A DNA stretch of 64,000 bases from Patescibacteria group bacterium (GCA_041660305.1 JBAZWO010000002.1:4739-68738); one strand, 5' to 3'. Shown: positions 32,577 through 63,502, counted from the first letter of the stretch. Program-made: numbers and translations. The notes: generated from the sequence alone by a model not told the origin.

Positions 32577-32687
32577 TTACCTGCTGCGAATCATTAATGC
32601 TTCGCACTAGGAAATGCTCTTTATCGTCACGCTTGGCTTGGGGGCCGGGGGCGGGAGATCAGGTTGAGCAGGGACCTGTTGGCTAGC

Positions 32688-34577
32688 TTAGCGGTGTGGG
32701 CGAGGATCCTCTTCCTTGGTTGTCATATCAACCGGCTCGAGGATCCGAACCGTGCCGAGTGTCAGCGCCTCAGAGGACAGTTTCTCGCTGGTCGAGAACG
32801 CAAAGAGCAGGTTGTCTGTCTTCTCGAGGCCAATCATCTCAGAGCGGTATACCGTGAAACTAAGGTTCCACCCGGGGGTTGTGGGCCGGTATGTTCCAAC
32901 AGTGGTGAACCCATGGGTTGGCCAACTGTTATTGCCCGAGCTGCATTCGGGCGGAGCTGATGTGAACACCCCATAGCTCACCAGAGCTCGGGTTTCATCC
33001 CAAACCTCAAGACCATCCGAGCATGGCTCGGTGTTGTACGTTCCCACGTCGAACTGCAAGAGAGTATTATCTGTGATCTCCACGTTGATTGGTACCGAAA
33101 TTAAGTCCCCGAACTCTACAGGTGTGTAGATCATCCCATATCCGGCCAAGCTAATTGCCTCGTCAGCGGCTGGGTTCAGGATGGCTACGGTGTCATACCC
33201 ATTGCAGTCCTGATCGATCTCATCGGCCCAAATTTCCGTAGCACCGGGGTAGACGCTCGCATCCTGGTCATCACAGTCTGACCCGTCGCAGGCAACAGCG
33301 ACATACGAATCGCCGTCCTGGTTCTTCGGAAGATCCTGGCCATCACAGTCCTGGTCGATCCCGTCTTCACAGTCCTCTTTGGCGTCCGGATGAATGTTCG
33401 CGTTAGTGTCGTCGCAGTCGAGGTCATTGGTGGCGTAACCCGCCACCGTGGCTGAGCAGCTCGCGGTGTATGCGGCAGCGCTTTTGCCATAGCCATCCTT
33501 GTCGGCATCTGGCCAGAGCCAGAAAACAACATCCTCATCCACCTGACCATCGCAATCATTGTCCTTGCCGTCACATACTTCCGCAACGGTGGAGTCATCA
33601 ATTTTGCCATCACAGTCATTGTCCTTCCCGTCACAGGTCTCAGGAGCGTCTGGGTAGATAGTCGGGTTGGTATCATTGCAGTCGCCGCTCACGGCCGTAT
33701 AGCCGGTAGGCTGCGTGCAGGCTGTTTTGCTGATTCCCGGATTTCCATAGCCATCTCCATCCTGGTCTCTATACCAGATGGGGTTGGTGAGACCATCGCA
33801 GTCCTGATCAATGCTGTCGCAGAGCTCTGTGGCGTTTGGATGGGTAGTGGCGTCGTCATCATTGCAGTCGGGACCACCGACTGTCATGGCTTCGTAGCCA
33901 TCACCGTCCACGTCGGTCTGGTCGGTGCTATCGCAGTCCTGATCGATTCCGTCGTAGGGGATTTCGGTCGCGTCTGGGTAGATAGTTGGGTCTCGGTCGT
34001 TACAATCCTCTATGAAGGAAAACTGCTCATCTGAGAACCACCCATCGCCGTCCGCGTCGCTGTTGTCTAGATAGTCACAGTTCTGATCGATGCTGTCGTA
34101 AGGGATGTCTTCGGCGCCGGGGTAGATTTTCGGATCGGCATCGTTGCAGTCGTCGCCGCAGGTTGTTACGCCTGCGTGACCGTCGTGATCGGCGTCGACG
34201 CCATCAACCCAGTCACAGTTCTGATCGATCCCGTCGCAAACGTCCGAGGCACCGGGGTAGATCGCAGGGTCTGCGTCGTTGCAGTCACCCTGCGCCTCGG
34301 ACACGTGATCGCCGTCGTTGTCGGTGGTGTCCACGTTCTCGTCGACCAGGCCATCGCAGTCATCGTCGATCTGGTTGTAGATCTCGACCGCGTCGGGGTG
34401 GATGGACGCGTTCTGGTCGTTGCAGTCACCCATCTCTTCCGAGTAGCCGTCGCCATCGTTGTCGATGGTCGATGGGCATCCTTCTTCCGAGATTCCAAGT
34501 TGGAACACTAGGGCTAGGGGACTCAAAACACGGAGCGCCGTTCGGAGAACGGCGGGCATAAGGGAGTGTCGCTTCAT
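32688..34577 (-). CDS. GC-rich island 1: exported protein with eight Cys/Asp-rich MopE-like (putative metal-binding) repeats and a unique C-terminal domain
   Basis: The ATG at 34577 is preceded by AAGGAG 7 nt upstream. Signal-peptide-like N-terminus MKRHSLMPAVLRTALRVLSPLALVF. Eight units fit DxDGDG...DC(N/D)Dx(D/N)xx(I/V)(H/Y)P(G/D)AxE..D.IDQ(D/N)CDG. The composition is much more GC-rich than the flanks. Confidence 0.75.
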   Translation of the reverse strand: MKRHSLMPAVLRTALRVLSPLALVFQLGISEEGCPSTIDNDGDGYSEEMGDCNDQNASIHPDAVEIYNQIDDDCDGLVDENVDTTDNDGDHVSEAQGDCNDADPAIYPGASDVCDGIDQNCDWVDGVDADHDGHAGVTTCGDDCNDADPKIYPGAEDIPYDSIDQNCDYLDNSDADGDGWFSDEQFSFIEDCNDRDPTIYPDATEIPYDGIDQDCDSTDQTDVDGDGYEAMTVGGPDCNDDDATTHPNATELCDSIDQDCDGLTNPIWYRDQDGDGYGNPGISKTACTQPTGYTAVSGDCNDTNPTIYPDAPETCDGKDNDCDGKIDDSTVAEVCDGKDNDCDGQVDEDVVFWLWPDADKDGYGKSAAAYTASCSATVAGYATNDLDCDDTNANIHPDAKEDCEDGIDQDCDGQDLPKNQDGDSYVAVACDGSDCDDQDASVYPGATEIWADEIDQDCNGYDTVAILNPAADEAISLAGYGMIYTPVEFGDLISVPINVEITDNTLLQFDVGTYNTEPCSDGLEVWDETRALVSYGVFTSAPPECSSGNNSWPTHGFTTVGTYRPTTPGWNLSFTVYRSEMIGLEKTDNLLFAFSTSEKLSSEALTLGTVRILEPVDMTTKEEDPRPHR

Positions 34578-34716
34578 CGCGATTCTCCTTTCACTATTAA
34601 TGACCAGCCAGCTTGCCACAGCTGAACCGGTCGTGGTAAGGGTGCCATCACAGTGATGCACCCAGGCTGTGAAGAAATAATATTAACTATTGTTTACTCG
34701 CAGCCGGAGTGCATTT

Positions 34717-34744
34717 TTTATATAAGCTAAACTAGCGTTGTCAA
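34717..34744 (-). promoter_or_regulatory. proximal sigma70-like promoter upstream of island 1 gene (TTGACA-16-TATAAA)
   Basis: On the minus strand, -35 is at 34744-34739 and -10 at 34722-34717, in AT-rich DNA about 140 nt upstream of the ATG at 34577. Confidence 0.45.
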
Positions 34745-34832
34745 TGAACGATTTATTTTATACACATTGTAAAAATGTTTTTTCCTTTTGAGGAAGGTTA
34801 AAATATGCTTAATTTCCTCCCAAGGCGGCACC

Positions 34833-34860
34833 ATTTTAGCGTTAATTCGCCAAGTGTCAA
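34833..34860 (-). promoter_or_regulatory. distal sigma70-like promoter (TTGACA-16-TAAAAT) downstream of the transaldolase gene
   Basis: On the minus strand, -35 is at 34860-34855 and -10 at 34838-34833. It reads toward the island 1 gene. Confidence 0.45.
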
Positions 34861-62342: not shown

Positions 62343-62345
62343 ATA

Positions 62346-62449
62346 GAATCACAGATAATTCTGATGAATGCTGATGACACTGATAATACAAATTAAATTA
62401 ATTAAATTTATCTGTGTAATCAGTATTTTGTCTGTGACATCTGTGATTC
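62346..62449. mobile_element. family C element, empty 104-bp form (MITE-like)
   Basis: GAATCACAGATAATTCTGATGAATGCTGATGACACTGATAATAC...GTATTTTGTCTGTGACATCTGTGATTC. The termini are inverted GAATCACAGAT. It begins 4 nt after the rarA stop, and island 3 begins about 45 nt beyond its right end. Confidence 0.65.
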
Positions 62450-62597
62450 AATAATTTAATCTTCTATTCTCAATAGCTTACATTAAGAACACAAGAATGC
62501 GGCCAGAGGTGAGATCAACGAAGATCTTACACATGGATGGGCCGCTCATCCTTTCTTTCCTCCAAAAGGGCGTGGTGTCTCCTGAGGAGCGAATTGC

Positions 62598-63305
62598 TTA
62601 CTCGCTGTCCCAGGCGTTTTGCGCCAATAAGGCGCATGCCTCACTGCTGTCCACTATGAATGTTTCGGGCAGCCAGCGGTAGTCATACGAGTCATCTTCA
62701 TACATGTAGAAGGTTCCGCCGTCCTCATAAACGGCCACGGTGGCGAACGCCGTGACCATGTAGTTGGCAGAAGGGTATGTTTTATCGTCAAAACTGAGCT
62801 GCCCAACGTACTCGAGTAGCCACATCCCCTCATCATCGTGGTCATAGAGATTGATCGCGGCCACAAAAACACCAGAAACAGCCTCGGATTCATAGAAATA
62901 GCCCTGGTCGAAAAAGCCAGGATTTTCGTCTGAGTCGGCGAAGTAGAAGTTTGCCCGGAATGACGTTTCCGTCTCTCCCAGCTCATTCGAACCGGCAGGA
63001 ATGCGAACGGCTATCGACACAGAGAAACCCGGGTTCAAACAAAATGCGGTGCTCAATCCCTGTGGGTAGTAGGAGGTTGTTTCGCCCTTCCCACTCTGTG
63101 CAAGTGGGTCGCTTGGAGTAGCAGCCGGAATCGGCGAGCTGTCAGATTCGACACAGTCCGACCCCCCGTTGTATAGGATGGTCCACTCGTCTACGGAGCC
63201 ATCCCGTAGCTCGTCACAGGTCAGGGGACTATCGTCATCCTCCCCGTAAGAGCCACAGGCAGCCAGAATCAGTGCCGCACAACAATAAAACAGACGTTTC
63301 AACAT
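62598..63305 (-). CDS. GC-rich island 3: acidic, aromatic-rich lipoprotein of unknown function
   Basis: The ATG at 63305 is preceded by GAGGAGGG 8 nt upstream. Signal peptide plus lipobox MLKRLFYCCAALILAAC. 235 aa, rich in Asp, Glu, Tyr and Phe. GC-rich relative to the flanks. Confidence 0.65.
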   Translation of the reverse strand: MLKRLFYCCAALILAACGSYGEDDDSPLTCDELRDGSVDEWTILYNGGSDCVESDSSPIPAATPSDPLAQSGKGETTSYYPQGLSTAFCLNPGFSVSIAVRIPAGSNELGETETSFRANFYFADSDENPGFFDQGYFYESEAVSGVFVAAINLYDHDDEGMWLLEYVGQLSFDDKTYPSANYMVTAFATVAVYEDGGTFYMYEDDSYDYRWLPETFIVDSSEACALLAQNAWDSE

Positions 63306-63502
63306 TTTTTTTGCCCTCCTCAGGCAAATGAGAAGCAAGGGGTTGTTTGCGCAACTGGGTGATGTAAGACCCCTCTTCTCTAAAAGTTAAAGAACATTCA
63401 TCTACCCAGGAGGTTGGTAATAACGTAAAATAGGTTATAAACAACCTTATGAGTATAAAGCAAACCAATATACCAGGAAGGATATTATTTGTCTAATCTT
63501 AG

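Follow-up and report, generated by a model that had tools for sequence, protein, structure and literature searches.

The 64,000 nucleotide window analysed here (positions 4739-68738 of JBAZWO010000002.1, assembly GCA_041660305.1 of a Patescibacteria group bacterium; all coordinates below are counted from the first letter of the window) has an average G+C content of approximately 37–39%, against which three segments stand out at 52–58% in 500-nt windows (32501-34500, 38501-39000 and 62501-63500). Refined GC profiles place these three islands approximately at the limits given in Table 1, the composition changing over 30–50 nt at their edges. Each contains one long open reading frame (ORF), always on the minus strand and facing gyrB, truB or rarA, as a first-pass annotation of the window had described; Pfam confirmed the identity of the neighbours. 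Judged from the steadily rising cumulative GC skew of the window, the minus strand is the lagging strand. All three island ORFs lie on it, as do 20 of the 54 native ORFs (p ~0.05 only). The islands are 3.6 and 23 kb apart.

The anomaly lies at synonymous sites. The G+C content at third codon positions (GC3) of the island genes is 0.60–0.67, compared with 0.30 ± 0.046 (maximum 0.41) for the native ORFs, an excess of more than six standard deviations over the native mean. Because it sits in synonymous sites the anomaly is not driven by amino acid content, and this possibility, which had to be considered for the MopE-repeat gene of island 1, was ruled out. The relative synonymous codon usage of the island genes correlates with that of the native genes either not at all or inversely (-0.35 to -0.08). 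The neighbouring DNA is of native composition: the foreign composition ends sharply and none of it is left outside the single gene. Synonymous-site composition and codon usage, together with Shine-Dalgarno (SD) sequences in an otherwise SD-less genome and an ORFan or patchy distribution, bear out the earlier proposal that the islands are foreign.

The closest matches to the GyrB protein among GTDB genomes and JGI metagenomes are 66–69% identical and belong to Patescibacteria annotated as Veblen-, Uhr-, Falkow-, Komeili- and Buchananbacteria. The sole database twin of the island 3 protein is likewise annotated "Patescibacteria group bacterium". By these sequence matches the host is a member of the Patescibacteria (Parcubacteria/ABY1-like), in agreement with the cell type of the Candidate Phyla Radiation (CPR) that had been suggested at first pass.

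Table 1. Islands, flanking genes, signals and repeats in the window (positions on the minus strand are given in either order; a dot marks features read on both strands)
Feature	Position	Strand	Remarks
Island 1	32600..34660	-	~2.06 kb GC-rich segment, edges +/-50 nt; GC profiles
Island 1 ORF	34577..32688	-	629 aa; GC3 0.67; PF11617
Island 1 SD AAGGAG	34585..34590	-	7 nt before ATG; duplex -12.7 kcal/mol
Island 1 promoter-like TTGACA-16-TAAAAT	34833..34860	-	11/12, in AT-rich DNA; the window has only one other 11/12 match
Island 1 second promoter-like TTGACA...TATAAA	~34741-34713	-	at the GC boundary itself
gyrB	30460-32493	+	flanks island 1; Pfam
Transaldolase gene	34896-35540	-	flanks island 1; Pfam
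Family A repeat and bidirectional terminator hairpin	32491-32540 and 32541-32578	.	gyrB stop to island 1; z = -4.95
Island 2	38225..39012	-	~0.8 kb, truB to tRNA-Asp; GC profiles
Island 2 ORF	38966..38292	-	224 codons, TAG at 38810-38808; GC3 0.60
Island 2 weak SD-like AAAGGGG	38973..38979	-	6 nt before ATG; duplex -7.6 kcal/mol
Island 2 promoter-like TTGACA-16-TAAACT	39016..39043	-	back to back with tRNA-Asp promoter-like site 39060-39088
truB	37507-38217	+	flanks island 2; Pfam
tRNA-Asp (GTC)	39142-39216	+	island 2 on its 5' side
Terminator hairpin	38226..38263	.	truB to island 2 ORF; -27 kcal/mol, z = -4.95
Island 3	62465..63415	-	~0.95 kb, rarA to gidB (rsmG); GC profiles
Island 3 ORF	63305..62598	-	235 aa; GC3 0.61; ORFan
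Island 3 SD GAGGAGGG	63314..63321	-	8 nt before ATG; duplex -12.0 kcal/mol
Island 3 best promoter-like TAGACA-17-(TG)TATATT	63467..63495	-	10/12
rarA/mgsA	61110-62342	+	flanks island 3; Pfam RarA/MgsA
gidB/rsmG	63503-	-	flanks island 3; Pfam
Family C long AT-rich hairpin	62343..62452	.	rarA to island 3; inverted CACAGAT-like heptamer arrays; z = -5.1
Family A repeats elsewhere	7341-7478, 21505-21541, 35631-35660, 37407-37507, 61012-61099		
Family C repeats elsewhere	19102-19611, 29112-29148		

Island genes and their predicted products

The island 1 protein carries nine PF11617 repeats (MopE, a 30-residue "putative metal-binding" motif; Pfam score 276 bits, cut-off 27, E = 7.4e-84) behind a basic-hydrophobic, signal-like N-terminus, and ends in an orphan domain of ~180 amino acids which gave no family match in Pfam or PHROGs, lax thresholds included. 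A word-indexed search of 5.8e9 proteins, the set against which all three products were compared, returned thousands of homologs to the repeat part only (30–43% identical) from Myxococcota, Bacteroidota, Desulfobacterales, archaea and one Uhrbacteria metagenome-assembled genome (MAG), and no ortholog. The gene is intact, and its product is predicted to be a secreted MopE-repeat protein. MopE-related PF11617 proteins are typical of the surface proteins of Myxococcota and Bacteroidota. The island 1 product resembles them in its repeats and N-terminus, but differs in its level of identity, in its C-terminal domain, and in being specified by a compositional alien in a CPR genome; a second, independent one occurs in the Uhrbacteria MAG.

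The island 3 protein begins with MLKRLFYCCAALILAAC-GS, where residues 14–17 (L-A-A-C) fit the lipobox [LVI][ASTVI][GAS]C. Read in this way the intact gene would specify a lipoprotein. Self matches only were found among the 5.8e9 proteins, while HMMER against 1.84e9 representatives gave the protein itself, one spurious repeat match and no credible homolog; the AlphaFold model is uninformative, with a predicted local distance difference test (pLDDT) score of 34. With a secreted protein predicted for island 1 and a lipoprotein for island 3, the earlier statement that two of the three products are exported agrees with what can be read from their sequences.

Island 2 does not contain a single open frame, a point missed at first pass. 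An in-frame TAG at codon 53 of 224 divides it into 52 and 171 codons; the same stop is present in an assembly from the European Nucleotide Archive (ENA), and public annotations call the gene as separate 52-aa and 142/153-aa proteins. Island 2 is thus probably a recent pseudogene, inactivated by a nonsense codon, which contradicts the suggestion that domestication under host promoters is general to the islands. Its product matched only itself among the 5.8e9 proteins, and no Pfam or PHROG family even at lax thresholds. Foldseek, run with a single-sequence AlphaFold model of low confidence (pLDDT 46), listed GNAT acetyltransferases first, all with E > 0.3; these non-significant matches make a GNAT-like fold a lead only.

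Translation and transcription signals

Start sites were scored by the duplex energy between the 22 nt upstream of the start codon and an anti-SD oligonucleotide, with a threshold of dG <= -7. All three island starts reach this value (Table 1), compared with two of the 54 native starts (hypergeometric p ~3e-4), most of which lie near 0 kcal/mol behind AT-rich leaders. The SD motifs and spacings previously quoted for the islands are exact. The accompanying claim that SD sequences occur only on foreign genes holds for 52 of the native starts but not for truB (-14.5 kcal/mol) and rarA (-12.7 kcal/mol), in which the SD-like site is the G-rich arm of a family A repeat, GGGAGGTGAGGTAGG, placed directly before the ATG and containing the perfect SD GGAGGTGA. 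In a crude scan of ~50 related CPR loci the fraction of genes with an SD was mostly 0–0.25, compared with 0.47 for an Alkaliphilus control treated by the same method; the scan is insensitive, but the contrast is real. According to published work, about half of the 16S genes of Parcubacteria are without the anti-SD motif (PMC9297842).

Native genes often possess a -10-like TANNNT box 0–18 nt before the ATG, most commonly at 6–9 nt. In front of the L27 gene (7767..7495) TTGACA-17-TAAATT ends 8 nt upstream of the start codon. The gene at 54152-55249 and many others likewise show a -10-like box 6–9 nt before the start. This arrangement suggests that leaderless or short-leadered mRNAs are widespread among the native genes. 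By comparison, the leaders of the island mRNAs, counted from the predicted promoters, would be ~40–155 nt long. The contrast is between native genes with no SD and probably with short leaders or none, and imports with an SD and a predicted long leader. In lacking SD sequences, and in the -10-like boxes that many of them have close to the ATG, the native genes resemble those of SD-independent or leaderless lineages (Bacteroidota; Parcubacteria without an anti-SD, PMC9297842), and may likewise initiate without a leader. Because the host's own genes are without SD, the SD of an island gene can serve as a marker of foreign origin; we infer that it is a relic of the donor, and it may still function in initiation.

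Sigma-70-like sites matching the consensus in at least 10 of 12 positions number 29 in 128 kb (both strands of the window). Each of the three islands has such a match on the correct strand 50–260 nt upstream of its ATG, in native-looking AT-rich DNA. Such a placement exceeds chance expectation and favours expression of the island genes from what would be host-type promoters. The TTGACA-type promoters earlier proposed for islands 1 and 2 stand; the candidate named for island 3 (63463-63434) is outdone by the site at 63495-63467.

Origin and recurrence of the islets

Similar single-gene islets occur in other CPR genomes. The island 1 homolog in the Uhrbacteria MAG (P0060; GCA_043808565.1, locus L170, 5140-8740) is itself a single-gene compositional alien with a GC of 0.59 and a GC3 of 0.74, among neighbours whose GC3 is mostly 0.28–0.39 (one at 0.50). 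The start codon is preceded at 8 nt by AAGGAGG, a motif that its neighbours lack, and the gene has a lipoprotein signal, TTGACA promoters in AT-rich upstream DNA, and a GC-rich 3' untranslated region (UTR) followed by terminators. A module of native composition comprising a serine recombinase, a helix-turn-helix (HTH) protein and a primase lies 1.4 kb away. In L024 (5000-6600), which is a Buchananbacteria sequence of the same aquifer system, a 379-aa ORFan with a GC3 of 0.73 and GGAGGA 8 nt before the ATG shows the same promoter and terminator layout, and in a CPR locus from the same metagenome (L088, 10220-11416) SD-bearing ORFs of raised GC lie directly 3' of gyrB. The low-GC CPR loci, with 558 ORFs in all, yielded seven outliers whose GC3 exceeds the median by 0.20 or more, most of them without a Pfam domain. 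An SD precedes three of the seven, compared with 60 of the 551 others (p = 0.03), or four of the seven with the corrected start of the Uhrbacteria gene. The islet pattern is a general feature of these genomes, and its recurrence fits selection on retention better than a mechanism specific to one locus. No homolog of the island proteins was found in 2.2 Mb of related CPR loci. Single GC3-outlier ORFs were also noted at L101 (3100-4850) and L018 (2642-3550), the latter specifying a papain-like protease; the outliers of L024, L088, L101 and L018 often have an SD and mostly lack a Pfam domain, and several come from the same aquifer system.

We interpret the three islands as separate, recent horizontal acquisitions, i.e. 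one-gene islets of 0.8–2.1 kb in a low-GC Patescibacteria genome, and would give this reading a probability of about 0.7. There is good evidence that the transfer was of the ordinary kind, and nothing here requires a new mechanism. The donor or donors had ~55–60% GC and used SD-led translation, and with each fragment came an SD, a coding sequence and a GC-rich 3' UTR of its own. The DNA was probably taken up by the cell and would then have entered the genome by non-site-specific (illegitimate or microhomology) recombination, without a dedicated recombinase. The fragments that we see may be those kept in harmless places, namely two convergent spacers and the truB/tRNA-Asp spacer, and within reach of transcription from an AT-rich promoter of the sigma-70 type. 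Spacers between convergent genes are the least disruptive places for an insertion; they make up ~6 of 55 junctions in the window, and two of the three islands lie in one (gyrB/transaldolase and rarA/gidB). Islands 1 and 3 are intact and plausibly add to the cell surface of an episymbiont.

Horizontal gene transfer (HGT) and genomic islands have been documented in groundwater Patescibacteria (PMC12455944). The islands resemble these and other genomic islets or ORFan insertions in their atypical GC and codon usage, in their narrow distribution, in their intergenic position beside housekeeping genes or a tRNA gene, in their accessory surface or unknown functions, and in that one copy is decaying. 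They differ in consisting of one gene each, and in that the foreign genes stand out by an SD which the genes of the recipient lack. Convincing flanking direct repeats and insertion at a tRNA 3' end were not found, nor were mobility genes among the Pfam-annotated ORFs of the window. All three are common in islands, though not obligatory. The phenomenon itself is already known; what is useful is that, in a lineage without SD sequences, an SD can flag foreign genes. This marker is simple, independent of composition, points to recent import, and could be used across the many CPR lineages with few SD sequences.

Several observations weigh against our interpretation. No relative with an island-free ("empty") site was found in GyrB-anchored scans of GTDB and JGI, which gave nothing above 69% identity, and for this reason insertion is deduced from composition. 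When truB, the transaldolase, rarA and the first ORF of the window were looked up as exact proteins, the same population or nothing came back, and no empty site. Gene order 3' of gyrB varies within the clade, which leaves no deep empty site for comparison. The 5.8e9 proteins yielded no donor sequence for any of the three products, and with databases of this size one would not expect very recent transfers to be ORFans. High-GC CPR relatives exist, so a CPR donor is possible. Strong consensus promoters stand exactly on the island boundaries, for which random insertion alone is insufficient; they need selection, de novo evolution or the replacement of a former native gene. Lastly, the organism's own 16S 3' tail was not found, there being no rRNA gene in the window and no 16S gene in the loci of the close clade; the 16S 3' ends in the loci that were fetched belong to Saccharibacteria-like genomes of another clade. 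As an observation on the gyrB region, the order pheS-pheT-gyrB (26887-32493) is kept across the CPR clade, and the 3' end of gyrB is a synteny breakpoint, beyond which the region is not conserved.

The islets might instead be the last remnants of larger mobile elements (a prophage, integrative element or plasmid), the rest of which was deleted in streamlining. ORFans are typical cargo of such elements, island 2 adjoins a tRNA gene and is already decaying through its TAG codon, and the Uhrbacteria MopE gene lies near a recombinase module. The composition of that module, however, is native to the CPR, and that of the MopE gene is not; island 2 adjoins its tRNA gene on the 5' side, whereas integrases usually use the 3' side; and the sharp GC boundaries leave no foreign DNA beyond one gene. 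There was no match of the islands to PHROGs or IMG/VR, of island 2 to phage records, or of island 3 to plasmid records. We consider this origin unlikely.

A donor within the CPR is another alternative. The genes might come from a higher-GC member (e.g. Uhrbacteria-like, 55–65% GC), or have passed between CPR bacteria as promoter-adapted units, without a non-CPR host being involved. Most inferred HGT into Patescibacteria has other Patescibacteria as its source (PMC12455944). The clade includes high-GC members (L029, L032-L034), MopE-repeat proteins occur in the CPR (P0060), and an AT-rich promoter before a GC-rich gene was seen in three CPR genomes. Yet these high-GC relatives are also SD-poor (0.05–0.22, though L025 reaches 0.43), the Uhrbacteria MopE gene is an alien in its own genome, and the 2.2 Mb of related loci mentioned above held no homolog. 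On balance a CPR source appears improbable.

It is tempting to go further and to suppose that low-GC, SD-less CPR of the ABY1 type repeatedly acquire GC-rich genes led by an SD, above all genes for secreted or surface proteins such as MopE-repeat proteins, from the bacteria that they live on, keeping only those that fall directly behind strong native promoters. This we regard as a doubtful extension of simple horizontal acquisition. If it were true, the islets would be a readable record of host identity, and SD-led foreign genes could still be expressed by ribosomes that otherwise serve leaderless or SD-less mRNAs. To our knowledge the host organisms are unknown for nearly all Parcubacteria, and islets might point to them if their donors were identified. 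The predicted export of two of the three imports, taken with the foreign MopE gene of a second CPR bacterium, hints that the surface repertoire is partly borrowed.

Insertion sites, junctions and repeat families

The first-pass annotation had proposed capture at hairpin or terminator sites, which would imply a dedicated system, integron-like or targeting structured DNA, for the insertion of single foreign genes. The low-coordinate edges of all three islands do indeed fold strongly (z ~ -5 each), but this is not distinctive. Values of z <= -4 were found in 12 of the 25 intergenic regions of at least 40 nt, including 9 of the 22 which do not abut an island, and the family A and C repeats and terminators of the edges are also found far from islands. 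Since the island ORFs all converge with native genes, their 3' edges are bound to meet native terminator regions, and edge structure is therefore uninformative on insertion specificity. The hairpins are best explained as ordinary terminators or repetitive extragenic palindrome (REP)-like repeats of the native neighbours, and not as recombination sites; gene 3' ends here generally carry such structures, and capture at them is not supported. Nor does an association with family A hold, one of the six island-flanking intergenic regions having such a repeat (not significant).

Imperfect direct repeats (11/13) flank island 1 at 32565 / 34709 (GTGGGTTTTTTAT / GTGCATTTTTTAT) and island 2 at 38221 / 39018 (TTTTTACAAAAAA / TTTAAACAAAAAA), exactly on the GC boundaries; island 3 has none. 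Repeats of this grade are present in 16% of random intergenic pairs, and their occurrence at two of three islands (combined p ~0.07) is at chance level, for which reason they were rejected as a signature of insertion. Sensitive blastn searches revealed only A/T runs in common among the flanks of the three islands, or between the island ends and the islets of L170, L024, L088, L101 and L018. The common cassette mechanism earlier envisaged is not supported by these results.

Integron gene cassettes, including dispersed attC-bearing ones, are alike in being single ORFs of the same orientation with a structured 3' element, many of them ORFans. The islands differ in that they have no attC consensus or shared 3' element (by eye, the 3' flanks contain no attC-like R''/R' pair, RYYYAAC...GTTRRRY), are dispersed and not arrayed, and have a promoter and SD each, while their structures are native repeats and terminators also present away from islands. 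As to an integron platform (IntI, Pc/attI), no tyrosine recombinase is among the annotated ORFs of the window. More generally, no integrase, transposase or recombinase was identified in the Pfam-annotated ORFs, ~8 ORFs being unscanned (part of the atp operon, 1795-2790 and 2720-3988); to this extent the earlier remark that the window has no mobilisation gene is correct. Carriage as a passenger of a transposon, insertion sequence or miniature inverted-repeat element is not indicated, there being no terminal inverted repeats at the island ends, and the family C arrays at 19102-19611 bracket a native gene. Although the recurrence of such islets in other CPR genomes could be taken to speak for it, a dedicated capture system is very improbable.

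Both junctions of island 1 (with gyrB and the transaldolase gene) are, with the island itself, 100% identical in Logan SRR18595301, Logan SRR6484324 and ENA ERZ27249449. Island 2, together with island 1, lies within a 60.7 kb contig of ERZ27249449 extending from pheS to a DEAD-box helicase, and is identical there. The junctions of island 3 are identical in ERZ27249449, JGI 3300014208, Logan SRR6484324 and NCBI GCA_041664685.1. These contigs were recovered by exact-protein look-up and then aligned to the window; all represent one population and are silent on presence/absence polymorphism. SRR18595301, SRR6484324, ERZ27249449 and JGI 3300014208 belong to an aquifer time series from Southern Ontario. 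The junctions of all islands thus hold in independently assembled contigs, as they should if the islands are real insertions and not chimeras. An assembly or binning artefact, with GC-rich pieces of another organism wrongly joined to a CPR contig, might have been suspected from the abrupt shifts in composition within a metagenome-assembled contig and from island genes without CPR homologs, but is effectively excluded by the agreement of different runs, assemblers and sources (Logan, ENA/MEGAHIT, JGI, NCBI), by the ENA contig with island 2, which differs by one single-nucleotide polymorphism (SNP) in 20.7 kb, and by the consistent order of CPR genes on either side of every island.

The SNP, the sole mismatch between the window and ENA contig k141_1238685 over those 20.7 kb, is at 46241 (G>T) and changes GAA to TAA, so that the RhuM-family gene at 45791-46822 becomes two ORFs of 150 and 182 aa in k141_1238685.

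Family A (7341-7400, 21505-21541, 32491-32540, 37448-37507 and 61058-61099) consists of a 10-bp GC hairpin, CCTCCTCTCC-N5-GGAGAGGAGG, and the tail GGGAGGTGAGGTAGG. The GGAGGTGA within this tail is a perfect complement of the canonical 16S 3' end. One orientation is found just before the ATG of truB and rarA, and the other after the stop codons of pyrG and gyrB. Terminator, SD mimic and anti-SD mimic are candidate roles.

Family C is made up of CACAGAT/ATCTGTG-like heptamers in inverted arrays, the arms of which are adjacent, as a hairpin, at 62343-62452. Arms at 19102-19138 and 19566-19611 bracket a 112-aa PCC-domain gene of native composition, an arrangement reminiscent of a small element that has inverted repeats at its ends. 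One half-copy occurs within pheT, where it is in frame and encodes TDYTDKYTDYTDK.

GC-rich perfect palindromes (GTAGAGACGC...GCGTCTCTAC) are located in gyrB (32203-32231), pheT (29635-29663) and truB (37912-37942), and in an intergenic region (13705-13735). In the three housekeeping genes they are in frame and encode V(E/D)TPRRGVST or SRDALQRVST, in which they resemble coding-region palindromic elements such as the Rickettsia palindromic elements (RPEs).

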